Shown here: piece by piece, positions 1 to 15,276 of the stretch | Layout: every line of letters begins with the position of its first letter | Numbering within the stretch: position 1 is the stretch's first letter | From: Sedimentisphaerales bacterium | GTDB lineage: Bacteria; Planctomycetota; Phycisphaerae; Sedimentisphaerales; Anaerobacaceae | Assembly: GCA_035529895.1 (NCBI GenBank) | Contig: DATKVV010000022.1 | Coordinates: forward strand, 1 to 64,000 | Length of the DNA stretch: 64,000 bases | Reading direction: 5' to 3' | Translations under genes and position numbers: made by a program | Notes under the pieces: generated by a model | The model's database searches: none | Told to the model about the DNA's origin: nothing | The model's input: the letters and a program-made list of their open reading frames with translations, nothing else

Positions 1-90
1 GCGGACACATAGCTGGATGAACCGCTTTCGCCGCATATTGACGCGGTGGGAAAAGAAGCCTGAAAATTATTTGGCTCTGCTTCATCTTGT

Positions 91-888
91 TTGTGCCATA
101 ATTACGTTTCGTTGTTCCGGGTTATTCGGATAGGCTCTAAGCCGCATGCGGAGTTTTATAGGTGGCGCAGGAATGCCGATGGACGGGCGCCGTGGTGCAA
201 ACTTTGTATGCGCGCATACCGGCAGCATGAGCGGATGAGGAAAAAGGTATATGTTGAGGCGAGGCGCTGCAATACATGTAAAGAACTGAAGGGCCGCGAA
301 CACTTTTCAAAGGATATGCTCAACCGGGACGGATTGCGTAGGCAATGCAAGGCGTGTGCGTCACTAAGCCATCGTCGTTGGGCGGTTCGCCAGGCAGATA
401 ATGCTCCGACAGAAAAACAGTGTCGCAGGTGCGGTATAGTAAAGCCGCGAGAGCAATTTCGCCGCGACATGAGGCACGCCGATGGCCTGAGAAGTTATTG
501 CACAGAATGCAATCGCATACGCGGCGCCGCAGACTATGCGCTAGGGTCATTCCGCAAATCTGGCACGACTGGCGGGCCGTCCCTGGCGACGTGGGAACAG
601 GTCGGGCAGGCCGTAGAAGAAATAGCGGGATTACAGAAAATCATAAACCACGAGCGGAGCGCCTGTCTTAAAATCGTACAGGGCATCAAAACCGACCTGG
701 CGGCCAAGATAACCAAGCTGTTAATTCAACAGTCTCATCTCGAAAAGTTAATCGAGCGATTCATCAGAGGGACTCGCCGGAACGGGGAACGCATCGAGCG
801 AATATTTCCCTGTGGCAGAATAAGTTTTTATCGAGGCCGTTTGGAAATCGTCCCAAACCTTCCACATCTTCTTTATGTCGTGGGATAA
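91..888 (+). CDS. Basic multi-zinc-ribbon protein (cassette copy 1). It has at least 3 repeats of CxxC-x(5-6)-F-x-[KR]-D-x(5-7)-DGL-x(3)-CxxC, then a coiled-coil C-terminus. The start is uncertain: TTG at 91, and the N-terminus is shorter than in the paralog at 9215.
   Basis: ORF track. Repeated CxxC pairs are visible in the translation. It is 70-85% identical to the 9215..10045 product. It overlaps the downstream gene start by 14 nt, which suggests an operon. Confidence 0.5.
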   Translation: MCHNYVSLFRVIRIGSKPHAEFYRWRRNADGRAPWCKLCMRAYRQHERMRKKVYVEARRCNTCKELKGREHFSKDMLNRDGLRRQCKACASLSHRRWAVRQADNAPTEKQCRRCGIVKPREQFRRDMRHADGLRSYCTECNRIRGAADYALGSFRKSGTTGGPSLATWEQVGQAVEEIAGLQKIINHERSACLKIVQGIKTDLAAKITKLLIQQSHLEKLIERFIRGTRRNGERIERIFPCGRISFYRGRLEIVPNLPHLLYVVG

Positions 889-1690
889 AATGAGCACAGA
901 GGATATAAGCCGGAAGCAGCAGTTTTTCGACCAGCGGGCACGTAACGAGCGCCTTGCGCCGCCGCAGATTGTCCAGCCCGGCCACGTCGTCCGCCACCCT
1001 GTTTCCGGCAATGCAAAATTATTCGGGGTAATGTCGGCTGCCGACGGCGATGCTCTTTACACATGTCACGAACTCGTTATAGACGCAACAGCCTGGTCCG
1101 ACACTGGCGGCGATAAAAAACTTGTCGAGCTTAACGATACCGAGATTACCGTCCTTAATATCGCTGAATTTGACCCGGAACCTGAGTACGTCGCTCACCT
1201 GGCGTTCGGTGACGTGCTTGTCGGCGTATTTCGCGGAAAAGATGATGAGAACAATATCCGCTGGGCCGGTGTGCCGTTTCGCCGGCAGCATGGAGCGCAG
1301 GTTCGCCGGGCCTTCTGCAAGGCGGCAGCGGGTGACGCGGCCACGATTGATTGTTATCTCGATAAAGACGAGACGGGCACGGAGATTACCGTTAACTGCG
1401 ATATCATCGGCGGCTCGAAACTCAGTGAGGCTATCCCGTGCCTGGCTGATGGCACGCCGCTTGCGGTTTACAAGCTCGCGGACGGCAACTGGTACACTGA
1501 CACAGTATTTCAGACCTTCGATAAGGAAAAGGGCCTCGTAATCGAGTCCGGCAAGCTCGTAGTCAATATCGACGCGACGAAGGGTCTTGAATTTGATGAT
1601 GGTACCAAAAAACTGCAAGTACATATTAACGAGACTGAGCTGCGCTTCGACGGCGGTGAGCTTGAAACAAAAATTTCACCCTGTTCTTAA
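875..1690 (+). CDS. Tail-fibre-like structural protein (cassette copy 1).
   Basis: The C-terminal segment KLVVNIDATKGLEFDDGTKKLQVHINETELRFDGGELE resembles phage tail-fibre repeat motifs. It is about 85% identical to the paralog at 10046..10843. Genomic context is phage structural genes. Confidence 0.5.
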   Translation: MSWDKMSTEDISRKQQFFDQRARNERLAPPQIVQPGHVVRHPVSGNAKLFGVMSAADGDALYTCHELVIDATAWSDTGGDKKLVELNDTEITVLNIAEFDPEPEYVAHLAFGDVLVGVFRGKDDENNIRWAGVPFRRQHGAQVRRAFCKAAAGDAATIDCYLDKDETGTEITVNCDIIGGSKLSEAIPCLADGTPLAVYKLADGNWYTDTVFQTFDKEKGLVIESGKLVVNIDATKGLEFDDGTKKLQVHINETELRFDGGELETKISPCS

Positions 1691-1693
1691 TCT

Positions 1694-2452
1694 ATGGCGA
1701 ACGAAACGATTTACGGCTGTGTTGACTGGGCGACGGGCAAAATCAAGTTTGCACAGGACGCTTGTTATTACTACGGTTGTATAATATGGGAGGGCGTGCA
1801 TGCCGGGCAAGTCGCAGTTACTATTGATATGCCGAATTGCGACGATACTTATTATGGCTGCGTGAACTGGGCAACGGGCAAGTTTCAAGTTGTTGTGCCG
1901 GATAATTGCTGTGAATATCCTCCCTGTGAATATTGCGTGGATACGCCAAGCCAGGTAACTATCACATTTACCGGGTTAACCGAGTGCGAATGTCTGGTTG
2001 AGATGTATGGTTCTGCTAAATTTGTTGGTACAGCAGCCGCGATTAACGGCAATTCGTATGTATTGCCTGCCCGCCCGGATTTACCGTGTCTGTGGAAAAA
2101 GAAATTCACCGGTAATTTTGGTACTTGGAAATGTTATTATTTTACTGAATGTCAGACTTTCGACGACGAAGTGCCATTAACTTTCTTGGATATAGGTGTT
2201 AGGCGCTGCGTAGGCGAGGAGGGAGACGGTTTGCATATCGTGGCCAGGGTGGGAACCGGCTTCGACTTTTGCTGGGGTCCTTCCGTTGGACAAGTTGTAT
2301 ATTTCTATTCAACCAGCGAAGGTGGTTGTTTAGAAGCCGAGATTACAGGATGTGTCGGCGCTGTCGATTTGCCCAATCAAACAGGTTGTGATATTCCGGT
2401 AATTGGTGGCTACTTAATAAGTGGGACTGCTACGATTGTTGAAGGTGGTTGA
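1694..2452 (+). CDS. Cys-rich putative receptor-binding / fibre-tip protein (copy 1). The N-terminal roughly 85 aa are conserved and contain a YGCV[DN]WATGK internal repeat. The C-terminal half is unrelated to the paralog.
   Basis: ORF track. Alignment by eye to the 10850..11599 product shows about 75% identity over the first ~85 aa and none over the remainder. Confidence 0.5.
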   Translation: MANETIYGCVDWATGKIKFAQDACYYYGCIIWEGVHAGQVAVTIDMPNCDDTYYGCVNWATGKFQVVVPDNCCEYPPCEYCVDTPSQVTITFTGLTECECLVEMYGSAKFVGTAAAINGNSYVLPARPDLPCLWKKKFTGNFGTWKCYYFTECQTFDDEVPLTFLDIGVRRCVGEEGDGLHIVARVGTGFDFCWGPSVGQVVYFYSTSEGGCLEAEITGCVGAVDLPNQTGCDIPVIGGYLISGTATIVEGG

Positions 2453-2889
2453 TGTCTTGCAATCAAATTATTCCGCCCAAATTTACTGCCGAACAGACTA
2501 AGGAATGCTTGCACTGCAAAATGGCAAGCGCAAAGGTCCGTTGGTGCGGCCATTTCGGAGTATGGATTCAGGAACAAGGCAAAATTATAACACCACCGGA
2601 GAAAATCGCTTATCCTTCGATGCCCCGAATGGCGGCGAACTTTATGATAGCGGCAGGCAAACATATCGCATCGGGTTTCGCAAACAGAACGCCTGCCGAG
2701 CAGGAACAATGCCGGGTGATATGCGAGGCATGTCCCCACTATGTGCCGGATTCGAGATTAGGCCCGCGCTGCCGAAAATGTGGCTGTTGGGTTTCTCTTG
2801 CAAAACGCTGGGCAACAAAGCCTTGTCCTGAAGGCAAGTGGCCGGTTAACGCGGGTTTAACAGGTGTTGCAACTGTAGTTAAAACATAA
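2449..2889 (+). CDS. Small Cys-rich protein with CxxC, CEACP and CRKCGC motifs (copy 1). It may be a metal-binding fibre-assembly or accessory protein.
   Basis: ORF track. It is about 85% identical to the 11615..12061 product. It overlaps the upstream gene by 4 nt. Confidence 0.5.
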   Translation: MMSCNQIIPPKFTAEQTKECLHCKMASAKVRWCGHFGVWIQEQGKIITPPEKIAYPSMPRMAANFMIAAGKHIASGFANRTPAEQEQCRVICEACPHYVPDSRLGPRCRKCGCWVSLAKRWATKPCPEGKWPVNAGLTGVATVVKT

Positions 2890-2900
2890 GCAAAAGGCAG

Positions 2901-2988
2901 GTATCGCACATAACGCCGAGAGAAAATTGGGCGTTTTGGCTGCGATGTTTTTATGCGCTTCACCGATTCTGTTAAGATAGGCAGGATT
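2901..2988. repeat. Conserved ~88-bp non-coding box directly downstream of cassette copy 1. It contains a short hairpin aacgcc-N12-ggcgtt followed by a T-rich tract.
   Basis: Near-identical sequence (gtatcgcaca..ttaagataggcaggatt) is found at 12092..12180, downstream of cassette copy 2. Confidence 0.6.
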
Positions 2989-3030
2989 CGCCCCTTTTTT
3001 GTGTAATTACCCAACCCCCCTATCCTGTTA

Positions 3031-3100
3031 CCGCCATCTCGTGGGAATTTCCGCCAACATCCGCGCGAAACTACATGTAATCTCACACTAAAGATGGCGG
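3031..3100. repeat. 47-bp motif ccgccaTctcgtgGgaaTTtccgccaacatc...aactaca (single copy) plus its inverted partner agatggcgg. Candidate att, end or iteron site.
   Basis: Strong match to the two tandem 47-bp units at 12214..12310. An inverted repeat ccgccatct (3031-3039) / agatggcgg (3092-3100) is visible. Confidence 0.5.
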
Positions 3101-3621
3101 TGGGCGCGCACGTGCGGGAATACCTGAACATAGACGGCAAAAAGCGGGACGGCGCGCAGCAAACGCGGATTTTTGGGGGACGCGTGGTTAGATTATTAAA
3201 TTTTTTAATGATGGCATAAGTGGCAAAACAGCCAAAAATTCACAGCGAGTTGGCGGAGACTGAACTTTTAAGCGAGGCGCGTTTAAACCCGTTTAAAACA
3301 GCGCCAAATACCAGTTATAAGAAAATGCCCGGCTGGTTTTCTTGACAAAACGCGCGCACGTGGGCCTGCGCGCTTGCTCTTAGAAGTGCGCCTAACAATT
3401 AGGCTAATTAGATGAATAGTGAACAAAACTGGCGGTTTTGAGGCGATACGGCGGTTTTTGGGTGTGCGGGTGAAAACGATTGTGGAAGGATGTGTCGGTT
3501 TTCTTGACAAGGCAAAAAGTTACCCAAATTAACAAACGCTGGCGGGCGGCCAAAAAAATCTTTGAAAATGCAAAAATTTTTTTTCGGCGGGCCGCAAGCC
3601 CCCTGAGCCGTCAAAAAGACC

Positions 3622-3646
3622 AATCTGCAAACGAAGTTTGCAGATT
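3622..3646. promoter_or_regulatory. Perfect 11-bp-arm palindrome aatctgcaaac-gaa-gtttgcagatt. Candidate repressor or operator site in the element control region.
   Basis: Read directly from the sequence. It lies in a ~1-kb ORF-poor region upstream of the head gene block. Confidence 0.45.
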
Positions 3647-3770
3647 CAGGCGGAAGTGATAGGATAGCCGATGATGCAATGGGACGGGCGCTGCCCGGTA
3701 CCACGACGACAATATCATATATCACACAAGGCTATGACCAACGATGCGAAAATTTTTTGCGGGAAAAATA

Positions 3771-3799
3771 TTGACAGGCCGGGCCTGGCGGGGTACAAT
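3771..3799 (+). promoter_or_regulatory. Consensus sigma70 promoter TTGACA-17 nt-TACAAT.
   Basis: ttgaca (3771-3776), a 17-nt spacer, then tacaat (3794-3799). Both hexamers match consensus. Confidence 0.6.
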
Positions 3800-3805
3800 A
3801 CGGCA

Positions 3806-3937
3806 ATCATGGAACACAAAGCACAAAATCCGTTGACTCAAAATACTGTGCTGAACGAGCCTGGGGATTTTCGGAGTGGCAACGCCCGAACGGCTGCTTT
3901 GTGGCCGCATGAGTCCCCAGGCTCGTTCAGTCTTTTT
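3806..3937 (+). ncRNA. Candidate ~130-nt small RNA or leader/attenuator, running from the consensus promoter to a strong intrinsic terminator.
   Basis: The predicted TSS is about 7 nt after the -10. There is a 17-bp inverted repeat ctgaacgagcctgggga (3851-3867) / tccccaggctcgttcag (3914-3930), followed by tcttttt. No plausible ORF fits within it. A good SD (aaagggga) for the next gene follows at ~3957. Confidence 0.4.
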
Positions 3938-3969
3938 CTGCGCAGGCAGAAAATTGAAAGGGGACTAAC

Positions 3970-4317
3970 ATGAAACACAAAGATGGACAAACAGAAGGAT
4001 GCAACGGGCAGGGCAGGCGTGAACAGGTGCGGGGCGTGACCGCGCAGCTCGGCTCGCTCGCAGAACGGCTGCACGTGGAGTGCAGTGACAACAAACGGCT
4101 GGCGCTTGGCTGTATCACGGTCCTTATCGAGCTTGAGGACATATTGACCTCGGATGCCATTGACGGGCTGCGAGATGCGCAGCGATATTTACTGAACGAT
4201 GTTGAACGGGCCGAGAAAGCGGAAGCGTCACCGGACGATGAATCGCTCGAGCGCATACTGGGCACGGCAGAGGGAATCGCCGAGCAGCTTCAGGAAGCGG
4301 CGGGAATCACCTTATAA
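3970..4317 (+). CDS. Hypothetical acidic 115-aa protein, first gene of the head block.
   Basis: ORF track. Preceded by an SD. Immediately followed by the prohead protease, which has its own SD. Confidence 0.4.
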   Translation: MKHKDGQTEGCNGQGRREQVRGVTAQLGSLAERLHVECSDNKRLALGCITVLIELEDILTSDAIDGLRDAQRYLLNDVERAEKAEASPDDESLERILGTAEGIAEQLQEAAGITL

Positions 4318-4328
4318 GGAGATAGTCG

Positions 4329-5090
4329 ATGGACACGGATGTCGATTTTGCAGGGCTGGCTAAGGGGCAGCAATCACTTCTCGCAAAGACGGGGCCTGAC
4401 ACACGGACGTGCCAGGCCCTTGTCAAATCCATAGACAATACCCGAAAACGGATCACCGCAGTGGTCTCGGCGCCCGTTTTGGACAGGGACAACGAAATTA
4501 TAGAGGCTTCGGCGTTCGCCGAATCGCTGGCCGGTTTTATGAAAAACCCGGTTGTCCTGGCCTCTCACCAGCACAAATTATCCGACGGGCATTCCCCGGT
4601 TATAGCTAATGTCACCGCAGCAAAGACGACGCCGGGGGGCCTGGAGGTCGAGGTAGAATATCACGATGAAACCGAGCTTGCCCGCGAGTACTGGGGACTG
4701 TACTCGAAGAAGATTCAGCGGGCGTTCTCTGTGGGCTTCATACCGAAAGAGGGGGAATACAAAAACATAAAAGACTCGCGCGTGTGGTGTCACACAAAGG
4801 CGGAGCTTGTCGAGATATCGTGCGTGCCCGTGCCGTCGTGCCCGGAAGCGCTGTCGAGGTCCACACAAAAGAAGCTCGACTTCATAACTGCCAAGCGGAG
4901 CGAGCGGGAAGATGAGCAGTTCCTGGCGGAGCTGCGAAAAGAGGGCCTGGACCTGGATAAGCTGCGTGACGAGTTCGGGGACGTAATGCTGATGTCGGAC
5001 GATGACTGGGGCGTCGATGATTCGAAGGGGGCGGGCGGTGATGACGAATATGATTTTGTTGGCTTGGTTCGAGGTGTCGTAAGGCTATGA
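4329..5090 (+). CDS. Phage prohead (maturation) protease, HK97/S78-like.
   Basis: N-terminal motif ITAVVSAPVLDRDNEIIEASAF, then VLASHQH and ELVEISCVPVPSCPEA, which are typical of HK97-family prohead proteases. aaggag SD. It lies directly upstream of the capsid gene. Confidence 0.65.
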   Translation: MDTDVDFAGLAKGQQSLLAKTGPDTRTCQALVKSIDNTRKRITAVVSAPVLDRDNEIIEASAFAESLAGFMKNPVVLASHQHKLSDGHSPVIANVTAAKTTPGGLEVEVEYHDETELAREYWGLYSKKIQRAFSVGFIPKEGEYKNIKDSRVWCHTKAELVEISCVPVPSCPEALSRSTQKKLDFITAKRSEREDEQFLAELRKEGLDLDKLRDEFGDVMLMSDDDWGVDDSKGAGGDDEYDFVGLVRGVVRL

Positions 5091-5250
5091 GGATTCGCTT
5101 AGGAACAGATAATTGCCGGCGCTCCGCATGCTGCGATTATTTTGCTGGCGGGTCCGCTGCGGGTCATGGCTCAATCTCCAAAAGAGGGGGACGCGCAACC
5201 AGCGACGTCCCCCTGTTGTGCTGGGAGCTGGCAATCCGTGTTTATGAGGT

Positions 5251-6426
5251 ATGACAATGCCACTTATTGAAGAAAGAATCGCCGCAGGCTTCGAGGCCGC
5301 AGGCGAAAGAATGAATACGTTTGAGCAGAATCAAAAGGAGCTTCAAGAGAGCGTAAATATACTTACGAAGATGCTGCGTGAGTATGGCAGGGCGCTTAGC
5401 GCGGGCAATCCACCGTTCGACCAGGAAAGCAACCGGTTCTGGCGGACCGAAGAGGACGCAAGGCAGTTCGGTGAGCTGGTGCTCACGGCGATTGGCCGCA
5501 AGGCTATGGCCGAAGGTACGAACATCGGCGGCGGCGCGCTTGTCGATGCGACGCTGAGCGCCCAAGTGATTCAAAGACTCGGCAAATACGGCAAGCTGCG
5601 CGGCAACTGCACGGTTGTCCCCATAGGCTCGGCCGCGCAGCATTTTCCGAGGGTACAGTCTGACTTGACGGTATATTGTCCCGGCGAAGGGGGGACGATA
5701 AGCGAAAGCGACATGGGTTTTAACGTGGTCAAGATGATTCCGAAAACATTTGTCGCGCTGGCAGCCATATCGAACGAGCTTGACGACGATTCGATTGTCG
5801 GCTTGGGCGAGATTATCGGCATGTCGATGGCTCGGAGCATGGCAAAAAAAGAGGATGAAATCGGCTTTGTCGGGGACGGGACAGCGACTTTTTTCGGCAT
5901 GACCGGAATCTGCCAGGCCCTGCTTAACGTGGATGCCACAATTGCGAGCATTAAAGGCCTGGTAGTTGGCGCCGGGGATACGTATGCAGAGTTGACGCTC
6001 GGCGATTTTCGCAAGGTCGTGGGAATCCTGCCGGAGGATTGTGACGACACCGCCAAGTGGTACATGCACAAGCGATTTTATTATTCTGTCGTGTACCCGC
6101 TGGCGGAGACGGCGGGCGTCGCAAACATCTTTGAGATTTTAACAGACCGCAAGGGACGATTCCTTTTGGGCTACCCGGTCGAGTTCGTCCACTGTATGCC
6201 GTACACGGGAGCTGCTTCACAGATATGCGCGCTGCTCGGCGATTTACAGATGGGCTGTTATATCGCGGACCGCAAGATGCTGACTATCGAGCAGAGCAGC
6301 GAGGTCAAGTTCTTGACGAACCAAAAGGCAATCAGGGGCGTCGAGCGAATCGACATTAACGCCTTCGGCGTCGGAGATACGAGCGAGCCGGGGCCGATTG
6401 TCGGGCTGATAACTGCCGCTGCATAA
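5251..6426 (+). CDS. Major capsid protein, HK97 fold.
   Basis: 391 aa. It follows the prohead protease. The N-terminal delta-domain-like coiled segment and overall length are typical. Assigned from established gene order, not from a search. Confidence 0.6.
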   Translation: MTMPLIEERIAAGFEAAGERMNTFEQNQKELQESVNILTKMLREYGRALSAGNPPFDQESNRFWRTEEDARQFGELVLTAIGRKAMAEGTNIGGGALVDATLSAQVIQRLGKYGKLRGNCTVVPIGSAAQHFPRVQSDLTVYCPGEGGTISESDMGFNVVKMIPKTFVALAAISNELDDDSIVGLGEIIGMSMARSMAKKEDEIGFVGDGTATFFGMTGICQALLNVDATIASIKGLVVGAGDTYAELTLGDFRKVVGILPEDCDDTAKWYMHKRFYYSVVYPLAETAGVANIFEILTDRKGRFLLGYPVEFVHCMPYTGAASQICALLGDLQMGCYIADRKMLTIEQSSEVKFLTNQKAIRGVERIDINAFGVGDTSEPGPIVGLITAAA

Positions 6427-6510
6427 TGAGACAAGAGCGGGAGCGCGGGCGGCAAGCATCGCTTTGACCGCCCGCGTTCCCCGTGTTTACCAAAGTTAGG
6501 AGTATAAAAA

Positions 6511-6957
6511 ATGATTGAGATACAAGAGATGAAAATGATTATCGCCCTCAGGCCGCAGCTAAAGAACGCCGGGGCCTTCGCCAATAACGCATACTGGGAC
6601 CGTTCAAACTGGAACCACGAGCGGGTATTGTTCGTCGTGGGCGATACCGATGTTATTGTCGGTTCGACTGACACGAGTACTCCGCCGTTTGTCGAGGAGT
6701 GCGATACGGTCGGCGGCGGTTATACCGCCGTCACAGACGCTGCGCTTTCGGCGGTAATCGGGGCGCTCGACGATAACAAGCTGTTTGCTATCGACATCGA
6801 CCTGCGCAAGACGCATAAGCGGTATGGCCGGGTAAATGCGCCGACGGCGGGCGATTCAACAGGCGCAAATCTGGCTATCCTCGTGATTCTCAGCAAGGGC
6901 GAAATCGGGCCGAAGAACGCGGCGGGCCAGGGATTAGCCGAATTGGTGACGGCGTGA
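6511..6957 (+). CDS. Hypothetical 148-aa protein. It may be a head-decoration or head-tail connector protein.
   Basis: ORF track. aggag SD. Position between the capsid and the tape-measure-like gene. Confidence 0.35.
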   Translation: MIEIQEMKMIIALRPQLKNAGAFANNAYWDRSNWNHERVLFVVGDTDVIVGSTDTSTPPFVEECDTVGGGYTAVTDAALSAVIGALDDNKLFAIDIDLRKTHKRYGRVNAPTAGDSTGANLAILVILSKGEIGPKNAAGQGLAELVTA

Positions 6958-6975
6958 CACAGCGCGTAAAGTGAC

Positions 6976-8865
6976 ATGGCAAAAGACATTAACATACATC
7001 TAAAGACCACCGGGGCCGAGCAGACCAAAGAACAGCTCGACCAGACGGCGCGTTCTGCTGAGAAAATCGGCGAGTCCACACAGCAGGCGGGCAGACAGGC
7101 GGTCAAAGGCGCCGAGTGGGTCAAGAGCGCATTTAGCGCTATCGTCGGTCCTTTAGGTCTGGCGGCGCTTGCCGCCGCCGTCATTAACATCGTCCGCAAA
7201 ATACGCGCGGCGATTAACGACATGAAACAGGCTTCCTCAGAGGCCGTCAGCTCGCTGGCTGCGCTGCAGAAGGCGTCCGCCGATTACTTCGAGGCATTCG
7301 AGGCATATTCGCCCGAACAGAGGCAGGCGGCGCTTTTGCAGGCCCGGCAGTTTCAGGCAAAGACGGGACTGCCGATTGAGGCTTCACAAAAGCTGTTAGA
7401 GGCGTACAAGCGGACCTTCGGCAAATTGAATGAGGCGGCGGTCGAGCAGCTCGCGGGGTACTGGCAGTTGCACGGCCAGGAAGCGACGCTCGACCTGGTG
7501 CGATGGATGGGCGCCGAGCGAGTCACCACGCCGCAAAGACAGGGACAGATAACACGCATGGTCTCGGCGGTTGCCAGCGAGACCGGCCTCAGGGACGCGG
7601 AGATTATAAGCGCGCTGACGCGATACTCGACGGAGCTGCGCGGCCTGGGCTGGACGCCGGAAGAAACGATAATGAATATCGGCAAGGCCCTGGCGGGCAA
7701 ATCGCCGCTGGAGGCGCGCCGGGCGATGAGCTCGCTGGTGGACGGGATAAGGGCCTTCACCGAAGAAAAGGCGCTCGAGATGAAAGCGGCGGCGGAGATA
7801 GCTGCTTCAGAGAAAGAGCGGCTGGCCTGGGCGCGCCAGACAATGCTCAAGATGGAGCCGGAGGCGCGCCGCAAGTTCGCACGCCAGGCGTTCGGCGAAA
7901 CGGCTGCGCCGTATGTCACCGGGTGGCTTCTGGCTGAATATCCCGAAAAGACGCGGCGCGCGCTTGAGTACGCCCGCACACCGGATGCCGCCGAGCAGGA
8001 GCGCCAACGGGTCGAGGCCGTCAAACAAACAGCCGAAGCCGGGCGGGAAATAACCGAAGGCGGGGCCAAAAAATTGGAACTGCTCTTGGCCGAAGAAGAA
8101 AAACAGCGAGACGCGATACGGGAATACGGCAGGGTTTATCTTGAATATCTGCGCAGACGCGACCGGATACAATACGAGCTTATTAAAGCGCGTGCCGGGG
8201 ACAACGTGGAGCTGCAAAAAGAGGAGGCCGCCAAAGTATTGTTTGAGCTGAGCCGTCCGCCGCCAGCGCGTACGCGAAAAGAGCTTGCCAGCTTGGAATA
8301 CAGGCAAACCCGCGTAGAGCCGCCGGAGAAGATAGAATGGCAGGACATCCCGCTTGAAGAAAAAACAGAAGAACTGAAAAAGGCTATTAACAAGATTTAT
8401 GACCGGGAAGTGGAGAAAGAACGGCAGCGACGCGAGCAGCGGCAAAAGCAAAAAAAAGAGCCTGTCCTTGACCAGACCGCCGAAGAAGAGCCTTCACCGC
8501 CAACAGCAGCCGCCGAAACACGAGGCCCTAAGCGGATTACAAAAGAGCAGCCGCCAGCCGGAGAATTAGCGGGTCCGGAACTGCCGACCGAGACAGCGCC
8601 CACTCCGGCCAGGCGGGTAGCCGCCGAGATTCCGGAGCTGCCGACTGAGACAGCGCCCGCTCCGGCCAGGCGGGTAGCCGCCGAGATTCCGGAACCGGAG
8701 CTGCCGACTGAGACGGCGCCCGCTCTGGCCAGACAGGTAGCCGAAATTCCCGTCCTGGAGGCGCCGACGCACGTTGTGCACGTTACACATAACTATAACA
8801 ACAACCTACAATTTTTCCCTTCCGTCCATGAGGACGACAGGGGACCAAGGTTTGAGCAGGTATAA
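6976..8865 (+). CDS. Tape-measure-like or scaffold-like protein. It has a hydrophobic segment, long coiled-coil regions and a Pro/Glu-rich tandem-repeat C-terminus.
   Basis: The segment WVKSAFSAIVGPLGLAALAAAVINIV resembles tape-measure-protein N-terminal cores. Three 20-aa repeats PELPTETAP(T/A)PARRVAAEI are present. Confidence 0.4.
   Translation: MAKDINIHLKTTGAEQTKEQLDQTARSAEKIGESTQQAGRQAVKGAEWVKSAFSAIVGPLGLAALAAAVINIVRKIRAAINDMKQASSEAVSSLAALQKASADYFEAFEAYSPEQRQAALLQARQFQAKTGLPIEASQKLLEAYKRTFGKLNEAAVEQLAGYWQLHGQEATLDLVRWMGAERVTTPQRQGQITRMVSAVASETGLRDAEIISALTRYSTELRGLGWTPEETIMNIGKALAGKSPLEARRAMSSLVDGIRAFTEEKALEMKAAAEIAASEKERLAWARQTMLKMEPEARRKFARQAFGETAAPYVTGWLLAEYPEKTRRALEYARTPDAAEQERQRVEAVKQTAEAGREITEGGAKKLELLLAEEEKQRDAIREYGRVYLEYLRRRDRIQYELIKARAGDNVELQKEEAAKVLFELSRPPPARTRKELASLEYRQTRVEPPEKIEWQDIPLEEKTEELKKAINKIYDREVEKERQRREQRQKQKKEPVLDQTAEEEPSPPTAAAETRGPKRITKEQPPAGELAGPELPTETAPTPARRVAAEIPELPTETAPAPARRVAAEIPEPELPTETAPALARQVAEIPVLEAPTHVVHVTHNYNNNLQFFPSVHEDDRGPRFEQV
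8575..8755 (+). repeat. Three tandem ~60-bp in-frame repeats inside the 629-aa gene.
   Basis: ccggaactgccgaccgagacagcgcccactccggccaggcgggtagccgccgagatt recurs three times with point differences. Confidence 0.7.
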
Positions 8866-8881
8866 GAACAAAGGAGTCAAT

Positions 8882-9115
8882 ATGCAGATAGAGATAACGA
8901 ACGATTACAGAGGCCCGCTGGGGACATTCAAGCCGGGCGAGACATACGATTTTCCAAAGAAGGTGGTCCGGCGCCTTCCGACATCCTGTTATAAAGAAAT
9001 ACTTCCGCCTCAGGACGAAGGGCAAGTGCGGGTAATGGGCGGCAAAGAGACTTCCCCCAAGACTGATGTTGCGCGAGAGCCGACGTCTAATACGCCGAAA
9101 AAAACCGGACGCTAA
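8882..9115 (+). CDS. Hypothetical 78-aa protein, using the internal start MQIEITNDY.
   Basis: aaaggag SD, 7 nt before the ATG at 8882. The longer ORF from 8774 overlaps the upstream gene and lacks an SD. Confidence 0.35.
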   Translation: MQIEITNDYRGPLGTFKPGETYDFPKKVVRRLPTSCYKEILPPQDEGQVRVMGGKETSPKTDVAREPTSNTPKKTGR

Positions 9116-9214
9116 CTCAGTCAGCGGGTTGGTGATAGCACACGTGTTCGGGTCCGCGAGTCCCGAACGCGTGAAAATAATCAGGCTTATGCCTGCTGTT
9201 TATAGAGTGGTTAA

Positions 9215-10045
9215 ATGGGTTTTAACGAGATATTACAATCACATGGCGTAGTACCGAAGGTCGAGACGAAGGTCTGCGGCAAATGTCACCAGGCCAAGCC
9301 GCTCGAGGAGTTTTCTAAGAACGCAACACAATCACATGGCCGCGAAATCTACTGCAAACTCTGTAGGCGTGTATATCGACAACACCAAAAGGCCAGACAG
9401 AAGGTACATGTCAAAGAAAAGCGGTGCGGTAAATGCAGGGAAGTGAAGGGCCGCGAGCGCTTTTCAAAAGACGCGAGTACGCGAGACGGATTGCGCAGTC
9501 AATGCAAAGAGTGTGCGTCATTAAGTCACCGTCATTGGGCGGCTCACCAGGCAGTTAACGCGCCGACAGAAAAACGGTGTCGCAAATGCGGCATAGTAAA
9601 GCCGCGAGAGGAATTTCACCGGGACCCGAAACACCTCGACGGGCTGCGAAGTTATTGCATACAATGCAGGCGGTTGTTAAGTGCTGCGGATTACGCATTA
9701 CGGTCATCCAGGCAGTTCGCCGTAGCCGCCGGTCCGTCCCTGGGGACGTGGGAACAGGTCGAGCAGGCCGTAAAACAAATATCGGAATTACAGAAAATCA
9801 TAAACCACGAGCGGAGCGCCTGTCTTAAAATCGTACAGAGCGTCAAAACCGACCTGGCGGCCAAAGTAACGCGACTTCTTCTACGGCAAGTGGACCTTGA
9901 AGGACTAATCGAGCGATTCATAAAGAAGAACCGTCGAAACGGGGACCGTATCGAGCGGGTCTGTGCGCACGGGAGAATATCCTTTTTTAAGGGTCGTCTG
10001 GATGTTATACCAAACTTACCGACCCGTCTTGTTGTGGAGAGATAA
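9215..10045 (+). CDS. Basic multi-zinc-ribbon protein (cassette copy 2). It has 4 CxxC-pair repeats and a coiled-coil C-terminus.
   Basis: ORF track. Paralog of 91..888, with some stretches 100% identical at the DNA level (for example aaaatcataaaccacgagcggagcgcctgtcttaaaatcgtacag). Confidence 0.55.
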   Translation: MGFNEILQSHGVVPKVETKVCGKCHQAKPLEEFSKNATQSHGREIYCKLCRRVYRQHQKARQKVHVKEKRCGKCREVKGRERFSKDASTRDGLRSQCKECASLSHRHWAAHQAVNAPTEKRCRKCGIVKPREEFHRDPKHLDGLRSYCIQCRRLLSAADYALRSSRQFAVAAGPSLGTWEQVEQAVKQISELQKIINHERSACLKIVQSVKTDLAAKVTRLLLRQVDLEGLIERFIKKNRRNGDRIERVCAHGRISFFKGRLDVIPNLPTRLVVER

Positions 10046-10843
10046 ATGGGCAGTAAGGACATAGGCCGGAAGCAGGAGTTTTTCAACGAGCGTGCCCGCA
10101 ACGAGCGCCTTGTCGGTCCCGAAATAATCCAGCCCGGCAGGGCGGTCCGCTATCCCACTTCCGGCAACACGAAGCTGTTCGGGGTGGTAACTACCGCTGA
10201 GGGGGATGGTCTTTACATCTGCCATGAATTGGTCATAGATGCGGCGGCCTGGTCCGATACCGAAGGCGCGGTCAAATTTGTCCAGCTTAATGATACCGAG
10301 GTCACCGTCTTTAATATCGCCGAATTTGACCCTGAGTCCGAGTATGTCGCCCCGCTTGCCTTCGGCGATGTCCTGGTGGGCGTTTTTCACGGCAAAGACA
10401 ACGCGAATAATATCCGCTGGGCTGGCCTGCCTTTCCGGCGCCAGCATGGAGCGCAGATTCGGCGGGCCTTCTGCAAGGCGGCGGCCGGGGCGGCGGCAAC
10501 GATTGTCTGCTATCTCGATAAAGACGGCAGCGGCTTCGAAATTACCGTCAACTGCGACATCGTCGGCGGCTCGAAACTCAGCGAGGCTATCCCGTGTCTG
10601 GCGATTGGTACGCCGCTTGAAGTTTACAAATTGGCGGATGGTAATTGGTACACGCCTACTAAATTCCAGACCTTTGACAAAGAAAAGGGCCTGGTCATCG
10701 AGTCCGGTAAGCTCATCGTCAACATCGACGATACCAAGGGCCTTGAATTTGACGCGGGCGACCATAAACTTGCGGTGAATATCAATACTACGGAATTGCA
10801 GTTCGATAGCGGCGAAATTGAAACTAAACTTGACGCCTGTTGA
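10046..10843 (+). CDS. Tail-fibre-like structural protein (cassette copy 2).
   Basis: Paralog of 875..1690. The start abuts the upstream stop. Confidence 0.5.
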   Translation: MGSKDIGRKQEFFNERARNERLVGPEIIQPGRAVRYPTSGNTKLFGVVTTAEGDGLYICHELVIDAAAWSDTEGAVKFVQLNDTEVTVFNIAEFDPESEYVAPLAFGDVLVGVFHGKDNANNIRWAGLPFRRQHGAQIRRAFCKAAAGAAATIVCYLDKDGSGFEITVNCDIVGGSKLSEAIPCLAIGTPLEVYKLADGNWYTPTKFQTFDKEKGLVIESGKLIVNIDDTKGLEFDAGDHKLAVNINTTELQFDSGEIETKLDAC

Positions 10844-10849
10844 TAGATT

Positions 10850-11599
10850 ATGGCAAACGAAACGATTTACGGCTGTGTTGAATGGGCAACGGGCAAGGTC
10901 AAATTCACACAGGATAATTGTATTTACCGGGGCTGCATAGTCCGGGGCGGGGTTCACGACGGCCAAGTGGCCGTTACTATCAATACTCCAAATTGCAATG
11001 ATACTTATTACGGCTGCGTGAACTGGGGAACGGGCAAATTCGAAGTAAGTGTGCCGGATAATTGCTGTGCAACGACTGATTGTGAATGGTGCGAAGGCGC
11101 TCCGCCGGGGTGGATAGATGTAACTTTTACGGGCCTTAGCGATTATGGCTGCGATTGTTATTACGATGTTTATGGTTATCACAGTTATAAATCTGTTGGA
11201 ATTGATATGTATAATGGCACTTGGCGCGTTCCATATTACGGGGAATGCGCTTATCACAGATTTTCTTGGGACCCAGACCCATTACCCGTATGTTCAGAAT
11301 GTCAGGAATGGTGGACCAACCAGGACTGTTCCGGTATCTATGGCTTCAAACAACATATAAATCCATCTCTGTCGGTTTATTTAATCGAAAGTGGTGTTTA
11401 TATTCAGATGCATTCGTCGAATATAGGAGTAGCAATCTTTCAGGGCACAATAAATTATACCGGGGATGATTCTTGCGGTGATACAGAAAACTCCTGCAAT
11501 AACACCTATACTTTGCCGGGTGAGTGTTGGCAATACCCGCCCGACCCCTATGTACGTACTTTTTGCACTACTGGCAGCGCAACCGTGAGCATAGCATAA
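10850..11599 (+). CDS. Cys-rich putative receptor-binding protein (copy 2) with a divergent C-terminal half.
   Basis: Shares the N-terminal MANETIYGCVEWATGK..YYGCVNWGTGKF with copy 1. The C-terminal ~165 aa are unrelated. Confidence 0.5.
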   Translation: MANETIYGCVEWATGKVKFTQDNCIYRGCIVRGGVHDGQVAVTINTPNCNDTYYGCVNWGTGKFEVSVPDNCCATTDCEWCEGAPPGWIDVTFTGLSDYGCDCYYDVYGYHSYKSVGIDMYNGTWRVPYYGECAYHRFSWDPDPLPVCSECQEWWTNQDCSGIYGFKQHINPSLSVYLIESGVYIQMHSSNIGVAIFQGTINYTGDDSCGDTENSCNNTYTLPGECWQYPPDPYVRTFCTTGSATVSIA

Positions 11600-11614
11600 A
11601 TTTAATACTCATAA

Positions 11615-12061
11615 TTGATAATTATGATATGTAATCAAATCATCCCGCCCCAATTTACGGCGGAACAGATTAAAGAATGTTCTTGCTGTAAAATGGCCAG
11701 CGCGAGGGTTCGCTGGTGCGGACATTTCGGGGTGTGGATTCAGGAGCAAGGCAAAATCATAACGCCGCCCGAGAACATCGTTTATCCTTCGATGCTCCGA
11801 ATGGCGGGTAGTTTTGCTATGGCGGCGGCCAGGCATGTCGCGTCGGGTTTTCGGAATAGAACACCTGCCGAGCAGGCACAGTGCCGGGCGATATGCGAGG
11901 CGTGTCCCTATTACGTGCGGGATTCGAAATTAGGCCCGCGATGCCGCAAGTGCGGCTGCTGCGTGTCCCTTGCCAGACGGTGGGCAACCAAGCGATGTCC
12001 TGAAGGCAAATGGCCGATTAACGCGGGTTTAACGAGCGTTGCAACTGCGGTTAAAGCATAG
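11615..12061 (+). CDS. Small Cys-rich protein (copy 2).
   Basis: Paralog of 2449..2889. Confidence 0.5.
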   Translation: MIIMICNQIIPPQFTAEQIKECSCCKMASARVRWCGHFGVWIQEQGKIITPPENIVYPSMLRMAGSFAMAAARHVASGFRNRTPAEQAQCRAICEACPYYVRDSKLGPRCRKCGCCVSLARRWATKRCPEGKWPINAGLTSVATAVKA

Positions 12062-12091
12062 ATACAAAGTGGTAAAATGTAGGTAGTCGCA

Positions 12092-12180
12092 CACAACGCC
12101 GAGAGAAAAAGAGGCGTTTTGGCTGCGATGTTTTTATGCGCTCCACTGATTCTGTTAAGATAGGCAGGATTTTCGGCCTC
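12092..12180. repeat. Conserved ~88-bp non-coding box, copy 2.
   Basis: Matches 2901..2988. Confidence 0.6.
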
Positions 12181-12213
12181 ATCAGACAATTACCTATTTT
12201 GCCCAAATCCCAT

Positions 12214-12310
12214 CCGCCAACTCGTGTGAAAATCCGCCAACATCACTGTAAACCTACACCCGTCCGCCAACTCGTGTGAAAATCCGCCAACATCACTGTG
12301 AAACTACACC
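12214..12310. repeat. Two tandem 47-bp units (period 50 bp): ccgccaactcgtgtgaaaatccgccaacatcactgt(g)aaa(c)ctacacc.
   Basis: The tandem duplication is directly visible. Each unit contains two ccgccaa half-sites and matches the single unit at 3031..3077. Confidence 0.65.
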
Positions 12311-12421
12311 TACACTACAGGGAGTTATGTGTTGTAAAAAAATTGAAGATTTTTTTGGATTTTTGTTGCACCGTCGTGCATATTGTGTCATATTGTAACA
12401 TATTGATGAGGATGTTACATT

Positions 12422-13090
12422 ATGCAGTTAATTTCAATAGAAGATTTGGCGGTTTATTTGGGTGACTCCAAACGGACTATTTACAAGTATATTGCCAGCG
12501 GCGACTGCCCGCCGTATATCCGGATAAGCGCCAAGAATATCAAATTCGACCGGACGGATGTCGATGCCTGGCTGGAATCCAAGAAAGTAATGCCGGAGCC
12601 CAATTCAGAGTGTTGGCCGCGAGGTTCTCTGCCCTGGACGCCGCGTGCAAAGCGGGTTATGAAACTGGCGGAGGACATCAGCCGCCGATACAAGTTGGAC
12701 CGCGCGGGAACGGGGGAAATGCTGCTGGGTATCGTGGAAGTCAAAGACTGTCTCGGCGCAGGCATACTCAGAAACTTCGGCGTTGACCATCCAAAGGTCC
12801 GTGAGCTGTATGAACGGTTGTACGAGGAAACGAAGGCGGAAGTCAAAAACAAAGCGTCGGGCGAGAAGTCAAATCTTGCGAACGATGCACAAAAGGCAAT
12901 TCGATGTGCCCGTGAGCAAGCCGTACGGTGGGGCCACGAGTACGTTGGAGCAGAACACCTGCTGGTCGGTATCCTGCTTGCCGGTGAGGGACTGGGCCAC
13001 AGGATCTTGACCGAGCTTGGCATCACTCTCGATAAAGTGCGCGCGGAAACCGCAAAGCTGATTGTTTGCAGGCCCGGGCAGAAACAATAA
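12422..13090 (+). CDS. Fusion of an excisionase/AlpA-type helix-turn-helix DNA-binding domain to a Clp N-terminal (Clp_N) repeat domain.
   Basis: The N-terminal ~55 aa (DLAVYLGDSKRTIYKYIASGDCPPYIRISAKNIKFDRTDVDAWL) match the HTH_17/Xis pattern. The remainder has two ClpA/ClpC N-domain-like repeats (AKRVMKLAEDISRRY..GTGEMLLGIV and AQKAIRCAREQAVRWGHEYVGAEHLLVGILL). SD gaggatg. Confidence 0.55.
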   Translation: MQLISIEDLAVYLGDSKRTIYKYIASGDCPPYIRISAKNIKFDRTDVDAWLESKKVMPEPNSECWPRGSLPWTPRAKRVMKLAEDISRRYKLDRAGTGEMLLGIVEVKDCLGAGILRNFGVDHPKVRELYERLYEETKAEVKNKASGEKSNLANDAQKAIRCAREQAVRWGHEYVGAEHLLVGILLAGEGLGHRILTELGITLDKVRAETAKLIVCRPGQKQ

Positions 13091-13447: not shown

Positions 13448-13684
13448 ATGACAAGCGCGATTTTGATCCTTCGGACTTCCGGCACAACGGCAACGCTGGG
13501 CCTTCTTTTCGTTTTGGTCGTTGTGCTCCTTCTGCTTGTGGTATTTGTCATATATCTATCCCGAATCGGCAGGCAAAGGGAGAAATTTCGCCAGGAACTG
13601 GACAAGCTCGCCGATGAGCTGGAGCAGGTTCGAAAGCAGGCCGAGGGGCGCAAAAAAGACGAGCCTCCGCCTAAATCAGAGTGA
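13448..13684 (+). CDS. Small membrane protein (78 aa), paralog of 13156..13395.
   Basis: SD aaaggggg. Same TM plus ELxKLAxE(L/V)xQ(L/V)R architecture. Confidence 0.45.
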   Translation: MTSAILILRTSGTTATLGLLFVLVVVLLLLVVFVIYLSRIGRQREKFRQELDKLADELEQVRKQAEGRKKDEPPPKSE

Positions 13685-14554
13685 TGTTTTTTGCGCGGTA
13701 ACAATTCGGTCGTTGTTGTGGAAGTCCTTTTCAATTCTGACCTCACCAAAACAGTTTGTCTGTTCGAGCAGTTCCTTTATTGCCTGGCCCTGGGCATAGC
13801 CGATTTCGAGCATCAGTGCCGCGTCGGGTTTTAAGAATCGGTCAAGCTTCTCGAAAATTCTGCGGCAAATATCGAGGCCGTCTTCTCCCGCAAAAAGAGC
13901 AAGCTTAGGCTCGAAGTCTTTTACGTTTTTGTCGAGCTTTTCAAACTCGGCGGCGCTTACGTAAGGGGGGTTACAAACGACAAGATCGAATTTGCCGGCA
14001 TCGAGCTGCGGCACAACCGGGTCGAACAAATCGCCGCACAAGAGAGTGATTCGGTCTTTGAGCTGATGCTTTTCGACGTTTTGGGCGGCGATATTAAGGG
14101 CGGCGTCGCAGATATCGGTGGCGACTATGCGGGCGTCAGAAAAGTTTTTGGCTATTGCCACGGCGATGCAGCCGCAGCCGGTACACAAGTCGCAGGCAAA
14201 TTGGGCGCCCGTTCGAGTTCGCAGAAACTCTACCGCCCGCTCCACCAGCAGCTCCGTTTCCGGACGGGGAATCATACAATCAGGGGCAACCTTGAGCTCG
14301 AGGGAATAGAATTCGGTTCGGCCCGTCAGATATGCCACCGGCTCATTGTGCGCGGCCCGTTTGACCAAATCGCGCAGTCGGCCAAGCTGTTCCTCGGCGA
14401 CCGGCCTGTCGAATTGGGTGTATAACTCAATCCGCTTTAATTCGAGAACGTGGCTAAGCAGCAGTTCGGCGCTCAGCCGGGGCGAATCGATGCCCTTTTC
14501 AGTGAAATGCCGGGTAATCCAGTTTAAGAGCTTTTGTATTGTCCAGTTTTGCAT
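13676..14554 (-). CDS. prmC: Release-factor glutamine N5-methyltransferase PrmC/HemK. The start is taken at the internal MQNW; the annotated ORF extends to 14752.
   Basis: NPPY motif (VCNPPYVSAAEFE). SAM-binding motif DLCTGCGCIAVAIA. The N-terminal HemK helical domain is present. Confidence 0.8.
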   Translation of the reverse strand: MQNWTIQKLLNWITRHFTEKGIDSPRLSAELLLSHVLELKRIELYTQFDRPVAEEQLGRLRDLVKRAAHNEPVAYLTGRTEFYSLELKVAPDCMIPRPETELLVERAVEFLRTRTGAQFACDLCTGCGCIAVAIAKNFSDARIVATDICDAALNIAAQNVEKHQLKDRITLLCGDLFDPVVPQLDAGKFDLVVCNPPYVSAAEFEKLDKNVKDFEPKLALFAGEDGLDICRRIFEKLDRFLKPDAALMLEIGYAQGQAIKELLEQTNCFGEVRIEKDFHNNDRIVTAQKTSL

Positions 14555-14779
14555 TGGCAGATTATAGCCGGGGTGAAGAGAAGTGAAAAACAAAAAGGGC
14601 CTGGAGAGGCGACGGGTATGAAATTGGGTTTGATCCGGCTTCGCCAGCCCGGCTTCGTATGGGACTTCGCCGTGGCAAGCAGGCTCCGCCGCGATAAATT
14701 GGGTTTGTTTGGGTTTGTTTTCCCGGCACGTTTTTGGCGGTTTCATTTTCATAACCCTCTGTCACATAGACGGTTAGGT

Positions 14780-15262: not shown

Positions 15263-15276
15263 TACTCAGATTGTGA

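Follow-up and report, generated by a model that had tools for sequence, protein, structure and literature searches.

A tandem pair of Mu-type elements encoding their own capsid in a Planctomycetota chromosome: candidate satellites of transposable phages

The window analysed here, 64,000 nt of a Sedimentisphaerales bacterium (GCA_035529895.1, contig DATKVV010000022.1), was found to carry near its left edge a four-gene cassette which occurs twice in direct orientation around a block of phage head genes. Both copies have the gene order A (zinc ribbon/Gam-like), B, C and D, as claimed in a preliminary description made from the letters alone, and the identical stretches that it had noticed were recovered. 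Three 300-nt blocks are 75% (196–495 and 9353–9652), 73% (888–1187 and 10044–10343) and 80% identical (2458–2757 and 11630–11929) at a spacing of 9156–9183 nt, with exact runs of up to 52 nt (e.g., 630–681 and 9787–9838). A conserved box follows each cassette (Table 1) and is itself followed by a terminal motif, at 3026–3075, 12209–12258 and 12259–12308. This motif does end both copies as first described, although it is a unit of 50 rather than 47 nt and is doubled in tandem at the right end of the second copy. The genes between the copies are those listed earlier, namely an S78 protease, an HK97 capsid, a tape-measure homologue and small open reading frames (ORFs), and no integrase, portal or terminase was found there with Pfam and PHROGs. 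The remaining window is ordinary chromosome, including genes for LysRS, MutS and D-Ala-D-Ala ligase.

The first position of the window is a contig end. A capsid gene 90% identical to that of the window was identified on a 45-kb contig (L005/L006) from the same Joint Genome Institute (JGI) samples, which shares 72–85% nucleotide identity with window positions 3278–9276 and stops just inside the start of gene A. An IS5-family insertion sequence (IS) is split between the two contigs, its left end forming the terminal 138 nt of L005 (13992–14129) and its right end window positions 1–137: the inverted repeats match (left GAGCCTATCCTAATAACCC on L005, right GGGTTATTCGGATAGGCTC in the window) and TAA is duplicated on both sides. 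With the IS removed, gene A is intact again (276 aa) and a first element results, E1, of 9192 bp (reconstructed from L005 and the window), which is collinear with the second, E2 (9239 bp), at 75% nucleotide identity overall. The start of the first cassette at position 91, as originally given, falls within the IS, and the ORF at 91–888 is a chimera of IS and gene A. The repeat, described at first as a four-gene cassette, extends over the whole 9.2-kb unit once L005 is added. The proposal of two related capsid-encoding, satellite-like elements of ~9 kb in tandem, each ending in cassette, box and motif and the first extending left of the window, was borne out. Leftward extension by way of L005 gave a second protease-capsid-p148-tape-measure block followed by host genes (peptidase C10, IspH, ribosomal protein S1, a sigma factor and a phosphoribosyltransferase), with no set of tail, portal and terminase genes. 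The IS in gene A of E1 is the reason several independent assemblies break there. Several capsid homologues lie on contigs of ~9.2 kb, and complete circular genomes of that size were considered and rejected, the contigs being chromosomal fragments with host genes. Megablast of positions 1–13000 against E. coli genomes and GenBank phages gave no match, and an exact look-up of the B1 protein returned only contigs of less than 2 kb.

The junctions give the order of events. On L005 the host sequence ends in ...GGGAG (7730–7734) and E1 begins TGTAAACTC. At 3075/3076, E1 ends and E2 begins with TGTAATCTC, so that the junction reads CTACA|TGTAATC. At 12314–12324, E2 ends ...ACACCTACA and is followed by CTACA, GGGAG and the host (CCTACA|CTACA|GGGAG). 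A 5-bp duplication of GGGAG consequently flanks the whole array and one of CTACA (3071–3075 and 12315–12319) flanks E2, the left CTACA coinciding with the terminal pentamer of E1. The two pentamers account for all ten bases directly to the right of E2, without a spare base. The simplest history is that E1 inserted between the phosphoribosyltransferase gene and an HTH_17/Clp_N gene with duplication of GGGAG, and that E2 later transposed into the terminal 5 bp of E1 with duplication of CTACA. The sequence is best explained if the IS5-family element struck gene A of E1 after both insertions. The dN/dS values for the ten E1/E2 gene pairs are all between 0.11 and 0.49, indicating purifying selection, and only the 3' half of gene C has diverged beyond alignment.

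The termini of both elements are of the form 5'-TG...CA-3', with several subterminal TGGCGG sites on the left and, inverted, CCGCCA sites on the right, which is the arrangement of a MuA-class element. The left end begins 5'-TGTAA..., carries several TGGCGG-type sites and paired CGTTTAAAC, and is followed by a regulatory stretch. The genes for a scaffold-like protein, S78 protease, HK97 capsid, p148, tape-measure protein (TMP) and the zinc-ribbon/Gam-like protein come next, to which E1 and E2 add B-C and D, and the right end consists of the box and CCGCCA sites 20 nt apart before ...AAACTACA-3'. The preliminary description had offered the terminal motifs as possible att sites. A further motif copy, which it had proposed to look for, was found in tandem (12259–12308), and the left host junction has no motif. 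Since the termini are TG..CA, the 5-bp duplications differ from locus to locus and the ends are common with MuA-encoding phages (see below), the motifs are right-end repeats of a Mu-type transposon rather than att sites.

Table 1. Features of the tandem array in the window.
Feature	Position	Strand	Evidence
3' end of IS5-family IS (transposase C-terminus; right inverted repeat 119–137), interrupting gene A of E1	1..137	+	Inverted repeats, TAA duplication
TAA duplication (138–140) and 3' part of A1 (zinc ribbons, Mu Gam-like C-terminal domain)	138..888	+	64% aa identity to A2, dN/dS 0.23
B1, 271 aa, putative tail-tip-module protein	875..1690	+	77% aa identity to B2, dN/dS 0.11
C1, 252 aa, Cys-rich, internal N-terminal repeat, variable C-terminal half	1694..2452	+	
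D1, 146 aa, CxxC-rich, probably zinc-binding	2449..2889	+	phrog_13558; 79% aa identity to D2, dN/dS 0.13
E1 box, 85 nt: hairpin AACGCC...GGCGTT and conserved right-end element GCTGCGATGTTTTTATGCGC	2904..2988	+	93% identical to 12087–12171
E1 right end, CCGCCA at 3031 and 3051 (20 nt apart), terminus ...GAAACTACA-3'	3026..3075	+	
Element E2, complete, 9239 bp	3076..12314	+	CTACA flanks
E2 left end, terminus 5'-TGTAATCTCACAC; TGGCGG at 3095, 3251, 3430 (and 3540)	3076..3440	+	
Paired CGTTTAAAC motif in E2 left end	3280–3298	+	In most relatives and L064
Near-consensus sigma-70-type promoter TTGACA-17-TACAAT	3771..3799	+	11/12 positions; consensus match only
Candidate c4-like structured RNA: long closing stem, two inner hairpins, T-run	3857..3926	+	Rfam RF02944, sub-threshold
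p115, acidic, helical, just upstream of protease, candidate scaffold	3970..4317	+	dN/dS 0.49; equivalents in relatives acidic and helical
Prohead serine protease, S78/HK97 type	4329..5090	+	PF04586, phrog_80, TIGR01543
HK97-fold major capsid protein, 391/389 aa	5251..6426	+	PF05065 1.5e-33, TIGR01554
p148, conserved, follows capsid gene in small elements and full-size phages	6511..6957	+	phrog_5707; homologues in almost all loci
Tape-measure homologue, 629 aa; 57-nt tandem repeats 8574–8750	6976..8865	+	Homology to L064 TMP
p77, homologous to N-terminus of gene after p148 in full-size phage L042	8882..9115	+	
A2, 276 aa: three CxxC...CxxC zinc ribbons and Mu Gam-like C-terminal domain	9215..10045	+	Pfam Stc1 1.2e-7
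B2, 265 aa, putative tail-tip-module protein	10046..10843	+	Context of homologues
C2, 249 aa, Cys-rich; 3' half only 39% nt identical to C1	10850..11599	+	
D2, 148 aa, CxxC-rich	11615..12061	+	
E2 box, same conserved right-end element as 2904–2988	12087..12171	+	
E2 right end: two tandem 50-nt units, CCGCCA at 12214, 12234, 12264, 12284; terminus ...ACTACACCTACA-3'	12209..12314	+	
CTACA 12315–12319 (E2 duplication) and GGGAG 12320–12324 (E1 duplication)	12315..12324	.	

E1 and E2 belong to a family of small elements. When GTDB genomes were scanned with a capsid profile, 43 loci were obtained, nearly all of them in metagenome-assembled genomes (MAGs) of Phycisphaerae, Sedimentisphaerales or "Pirellulales", and relatives were delimited at these loci by searching for both terminal nonamers flanked by the same 5 bp on either side. 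The strict scan identified eight relatives, with a chance expectation of ~0.01–0.1 matches per locus, and a relaxed scan added two more (22 matches versus 6 expected and 3–11 in shifted controls), the genuine matches of the relaxed scan all carrying an ATGGC/GCCAT terminal inverted repeat. The ten relatives measure 8087–8827 bp and lie at unrelated host loci in other Planctomycetota genomes, each with its own distinct 5-bp duplication; two single-copy relatives with annotated flanks are situated one between tatD and dnaG, the other between thiD and a sulfatase gene. Their gene set comprises a divergent HTH_3 repressor gene and small ORFs (both absent from E1 and E2), a gene for an acidic helical protein, protease, capsid, p148, TMP-like and zinc-ribbon/Gam-like genes and one last small gene. 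No integrase, transposase, portal, terminase or tail genes were found in the 12 delimited elements (E1, E2 and the ten relatives). Capsid identity among at least 12 elements is only 50–68%, and the small-element capsids form one clade of 388–401 aa, compared with 425–473 aa for the capsids of full-size phages. The paired CGTTTAAAC lies ~200–220 nt (in some cases ~320–360 nt) from the left end in E1, L013, L015, L025, L064 and L071 (the last two being contigs introduced below), and a role as pac site, operator or enhancer is possible. Integrase-less islands with capsid and protease genes are abundant in planctomycete MAGs; 722 of the 8000 scored candidates were capsid homologues at E ≤ 1e-5. 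A search of IMG/VR gave no relative with capsid patterns and no match with E-type end patterns; one right-end pattern match (L058) proved to be an unrelated phage ORF.

More distant relatives of the capsid belong to full-size Mu-like phages, one of which is L042/L059. One arm of this phage carries genes for Mu gp27, TerL, a portal-MuF fusion, protease, capsid, p148, tail proteins and TMP, and the other arm those for MuA, MuB, GemA and Gam together with fibre genes. When JGI metagenomes were scanned with the E1/E2 left-end sequence, the E1 contig and two others were returned, one of which (L064) comes from a sample numbered next to that of the window, apparently within one sampling project. The terminus of L064 is identical to that of E2 for 46 nt, and ~360 nt can be aligned, including the paired CGTTTAAAC. 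Tail, TMP, p148, capsid and protease genes follow, collinear with L042, the proteins of the two phages being 32–68% identical (50–68% for the tail genes) and the TMPs alike at the N-terminus only. Two IMG/VR contigs complete the comparison: L071 has the same left-end (T1) design, and in L072 the MuA-MuB-GemA-Gam...fibre arm leads to a T2 end composed of a GCGG-T-run-GCGC element, a pair of GCCAYTT sites spaced by 20 nt and the terminus ...CCTACA, which is the design of box plus motif. A box-like right-end element also lies near the right end of the relatives. As the T1 designs of L064 and L071 and the T2 design of L072 match those of the small elements, both small-element ends are copies of the two ends of MuA-encoding phages. 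The MAG with the small element L028 also contains a full-size MuA phage, L044. A putative Dam-like DNA methyltransferase gene, recognized by eye from the translation, adjoins the T1 end in L042 (20189–21040) and in L071 (reverse strand, ~500–1300 nt from that end).

A further link to L064 was found in the tape-measure gene. The 629-aa protein, which had been called tape-measure-like from its sequence alone, shares 36% amino acid identity with the L064 TMP over its full length, and PF10145 matches the orthologue in the relative L056. The 3' region of the gene (8556–8790) is 74–86% identical in nucleotide sequence to the TMP gene of L064, and this contrast with the ~36% identity of the remaining protein suggests recent recombination in the region. 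It encodes the Pro/Glu/Thr-rich C-terminal part of the protein and includes the three 57-nt tandem repeats.

Four small elements, L061 (=L012), L032, L035 and L036, encode their own MuA and MuB (coordinates L061 5068–13366, L032 1009–5398, L035 4530–11326 and L036 5162–11167). The MuA and MuB genes follow the capsid gene in L061 and precede the protease gene in the other three, and L035 has a rearranged protease fusion. These would be self-transposing, capsid-encoding elements of roughly 9–11 kb; their right ends were not found, and a target duplication was looked for in L061 and L035 and was not found either. Short ORFs resembling only the N-terminal ~140 residues of MuA (the DNA-binding part) were seen in L017 (4918–5361), L018 (1807–2064), L026 (9457–9861) and L048 (10786–11199), echoing the known relatedness of the Mu repressor to the N-terminal domain of MuA. 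In L061, eight tandem paralogues of ~145 aa with weak DUF2178 matches, and after them a small HTH gene, directly adjoin the MuA-bearing element on its right (13606–17236).

Of the element proteins, only protease, capsid, zinc ribbon and a weak Gam match were recognized with Pfam, PHROGs, NCBIfam and PADLOC; the NCBIfam matches were confined to the protease and the capsid, and PADLOC returned no defence family. The Gam match (PF07352) of A2 scored 21.1 bits (E = 3e-4) against a gathering cut-off of 28.3. A2 is homologous to a 213-aa protein of L056 which has a firmer precomputed Gam match, and its similarity to the Gam of the full-size phages is marginal only. B has only five database homologues. 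Two of these (P0243 and P0244) lie one to two genes after TMP in two unrelated full siphovirus-like phages (L067 and L069), where the order is TMP, 278/291-aa protein(s), a B-like and a Cys-rich C-like protein. On the basis of this gene order B and C are best read as a tail-tip or host-recognition pair, a reading with which the swapped C-terminal half of C is in keeping. The "fibre" label of the preliminary description finds indirect support in the setting of the B and C homologues, paired in a tail-tip module after TMP, and no fibre domain was detected. An AlphaFold model of B, built from a 6-sequence alignment, reached a pLDDT of 46 and was too poor to use, and PDB sequence searches with B and p148 gave no significant match. 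An internal duplication was observed at the 5' end of gene C in both copies (1701–1882 and 10857–11038), with 41-nt units 141 nt apart which encode ETIYGCV-W-ATGK.

E1 and E2 lack the protein repressor (cI-type) which the relatives carry, and instead have the promoter and the candidate c4-like RNA of Table 1 at this place. The candidate scored 30.8 bits (E = 0.004) with the c4-2 model of Rfam (c4 antisense RNA clan CL00128), below the gathering score of 41. A sub-threshold match of 28 bits occupies the syntenic place in L056 (7806–7873), and Rfam scans of nine other relatives showed no c4-like RNA. The folds of the E1 and E2 copies agree, with at least two compensatory changes, and the region is considered a candidate c4/CI-type regulatory RNA. 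A 100-aa ORF which overlaps it (3671–3973) is probably not a gene.

Some neighbouring genes should be mentioned. A gene at 12422–13090, which starts 98 nt to the right of the array and outside the target duplication, encodes an HTH_17 domain fused to Clp_N repeats; a Clp_N-repeat homologue was also seen in L048 (12738–13214), where a small element has its Gam-like gene ~2.5 kb upstream, which may be coincidence or an association. On the minus strand beside the array are genes for a PrmC-like methyltransferase with an N-terminal extension (13676–14752) and, following it, a DDE_Tnp_1_4 transposase fragment (14780–15262).

It is close to certain that the array consists of two complete elements in tandem, as given by their Mu-type ends, target duplications, gene content and end homology to MuA phages. 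The most probable interpretation (probability about 0.7) is that E1 and E2 are diverged members of a family of 8–9-kb Mu-type transposable elements in Planctomycetota, which would be non-autonomous satellites with their own capsid. Both lack essential virion and propagation functions and match a helper in their features (the ends and the TMP 3' region shared with L064), as is expected of a satellite. Trans-mobilization is proposed because the elements are without transposase, MuB, portal, terminase and tail genes. They would be mobilized in trans by MuA and MuB of a co-resident full-size Mu-like phage, for which L064 serves as the type example, or of a MuA-bearing small relative; the 46-nt identity with the L064 terminus suggests that a MuA-type transposase would bind and join the ends of E2. 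The elements would then replicate by transposition, their DNA would be packaged with helper portal, terminase and tail into capsids made of their own capsid protein and protease, and their own TMP and B/C proteins may enter the tail. The narrow size range of 8.1–9.2 kb fits a small head. Trans-mobilization, packaging and capsid size are all deduced from gene content and ends, and the part of the interpretation that concerns helper and packaging is held with somewhat better than even confidence. The fullest form of the proposal, an old and widespread Planctomycetota satellite lineage (Phycisphaerae/Sedimentisphaerales and relatives) that uses helper MuA/MuB for transposition, builds small HK97 capsids and supplies its own TMP and host-recognition (tail-tip) proteins, is favoured only slightly over its negation.

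Several points weigh against this interpretation. All of the evidence is computational. No helper or MuA gene was seen within the 64-kb window; MuA, MuB, TerL, portal and gp27 were found neither there nor on L005, tblastn with three MuA proteins returning only noise. The link to L064 consists of shared end sequence and neighbouring JGI sample numbers (Ga0307375/77/79), not of membership in one genome. The left-end sites of E1 (GGCCAAAAA) differ from those of E2 beyond nt 23, and the Gam assignment of gene A lies below the Pfam cut-off in the window. A satellite that brings TMP and tail-tip genes of its own is without close precedent, and the role of these genes is speculative. Given Mu-type target immunity, insertion at the end of another element would be expected to be disfavoured. 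Finally, as L061, L032, L035 and L036 encode their own MuA and MuB, the term "satellite" may not fit the whole family.

Among the other explanations, decay deserves the most attention, although it is considered unlikely. The elements could be remnants of Mu-like prophages which lost transposase, portal, terminase and tail by internal deletion and no longer complete a life cycle by themselves; both ends, like the head, TMP and Gam genes, do derive from Mu-like phages, E1 already contains an IS and L035 a rearranged protease fusion. Against decay, at least 12 elements keep the same reduced plan, intact ends and duplications within 8.1–9.2 kb despite 50–68% capsid identity, their capsids form a clade of their own and all genes are under purifying selection. 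Moreover E2 transposed after E1, so the reduced form is itself mobile. Slightly less likely again is that the elements are Mu-type transposons which carry capsid and protease as anti-phage interference or defence cargo (e.g., for poisoned assembly) and are not packaged. Capsid, protease, p148 and TMP are homologous to and yet distinct from those of the putative helper, and several known satellites disturb helper assembly (PMC11389934). However, there was no PADLOC match, and the size constraint, the candidate cis elements by the left end and the complete head-building set are more simply accounted for by packaging, with which interference is in any case compatible. That the elements are autonomous minimal viruses or producers of gene transfer agent-like particles, with packaging and transposition performed by unrecognized proteins among p148, A, B, C and D, is improbable: five of the ten element proteins are without assigned function and the MuA-bearing small relatives show that the family can supply its own transposition, but no ORF is large or similar enough for a portal or terminase ATPase (the sole protein above 400 aa being the TMP homologue) and the ends match phages that encode MuA.

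Site-specific integration is more doubtful still. Two satellites might have integrated in tandem at an att site, the 50-nt motif, through an integrase supplied in trans or host Xer, which would agree with the head-to-tail layout, the motif at every right junction and the HTH_17 (excisionase-like fold) gene adjoining the array. None of the 12 elements has an integrase, however, the relatives occupy unrelated loci, the motif is absent from the left host junction and the TG..CA termini are common to MuA-encoding phages; tandem integration by Xer/dif or an integrase was rejected once the 5-bp duplications were found to differ. The other architecture entertained in the preliminary description, a single prophage with an internally duplicated fibre module, can hardly be maintained at all. 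It was reasonable as long as the window alone was considered, where only the cassette appears twice, but L005 carries a second protease-capsid-p148-TMP block, two pairs of ends and two target duplications are present, one for each unit, and the host genes upstream of E1, where no tail, portal and terminase set was found, refute it.

The proposed satellites can be compared with several known systems. With Mu and Mu-like phages (Mu, B3/D3112-like and here L042/L059, L064, L071 and L072) they share TG...CA termini, inverted subterminal repeats, the 5-bp target duplication, a Gam-like gene and head genes homologous to those of phages with gp27, portal-MuF, MuA, MuB and GemA. They differ in size (~9 kb versus ~35–40 kb), in the inversion of the head block relative to the T1 end and in the absence of MuA, MuB, GemA, terminase, portal, tail-tube, sheath and baseplate genes. 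No MuA-type DDE transposase (PF02914/PF00665) was detected among the E2 and cassette-1 proteins with Pfam, PHROGs and NCBIfam, no element protein has the AAA domain of a MuB-type AAA+ ATPase, and the complete virion module (terminase, portal, tail) of the full-size relatives is missing; without MuA and MuB the elements do not qualify as autonomous Mu-like phages. Engineered mini-Mu or Mud elements retain the Mu ends without the transposition genes, and depend for movement and packaging on a helper Mu as the source of A/B and virion proteins. E1 and E2 resemble these in having Mu ends and no transposition genes and, as proposed, in their use of a helper. They differ in being natural members of an old, diversified lineage which encode their own capsid, protease, TMP and tail-tip proteins.

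The capsid-forming phage-inducible chromosomal islands (cf-PICIs), which together with mini-Mu are the closest concepts, are likewise small chromosomal islands with their own HK97-type capsid and protease that depend on a helper for the remaining virion (tails). A cf-PICI has a tyrosine integrase with att sites, alpA, a primase/replication module, portal, head-tail connectors and small terminase, whereas E1 and E2 would move by transposition. An integrase was absent from E1, E2 and the ten relatives, and Pfam, PHROGs and NCBIfam gave no portal, connector, small terminase, alpA or primase. P4 is of similar size (about 10 kb) and helper-dependent, and its immunity depends on a small RNA of the c4/CI type, which the c4-like candidate at 3857–3926 possibly parallels. 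It has an integrase, the alpha primase-helicase and Sid/Psu/delta/epsilon and remodels the capsid protein of its helper, whereas E1 and E2 encode their own; the same three databases found none of these P4 domains in the element proteins. Lacking integrase, replication module and portal, E1 and E2 can be placed neither with the cf-PICIs nor with P4. MITEs (miniature inverted-repeat transposable elements), treated as a separate kind of hitcher (PMC11389934), also carry cis ends for a transposase encoded elsewhere. They are non-coding and of ~300 nt, whereas E1 and E2 carry ten particle-building genes and would combine intragenomic hitching with virion-mediated transfer. A purely conceptual parallel is offered by Polintons/Mavericks, transposons of the retroviral-integrase (DDE) superfamily with capsid and maturation protease, a description which the MuA-bearing L061, L032, L035 and L036 fit. 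Polintons differ in their unrelated double jelly-roll capsid (not HK97), self-replication by a protein-primed polymerase and eukaryotic hosts.

The satellite families of a 2024 review are P4-like, PICI, cfPICI, PLE, PICMI, VEIMEs, Tycheposons and soil satellites, none of which transposes (PMC11389934). In a full-text literature search, no account of satellites belonging to transposable phages came up. If the interpretation is true, E1, E2 and their relatives would constitute the first family of satellites of transposable phages and would unite MITE-like and satellite-like parasitism in one element. Exploitation of the helper's transposase as well as its virion would be a new mode of mobility for satellites. 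Satellites with their own capsid, tail-length and receptor-recognition genes would have a bearing on host-range evolution and the formation of chimeric particles. A rule for detection also follows, as integrase-less islands with capsid and protease genes can be delimited by TG..CA ends and 5-bp duplications. The family may moreover represent an evolutionary series, from full phage through self-transposing capsid element (the MuA-bearing small relatives) to non-autonomous satellite.

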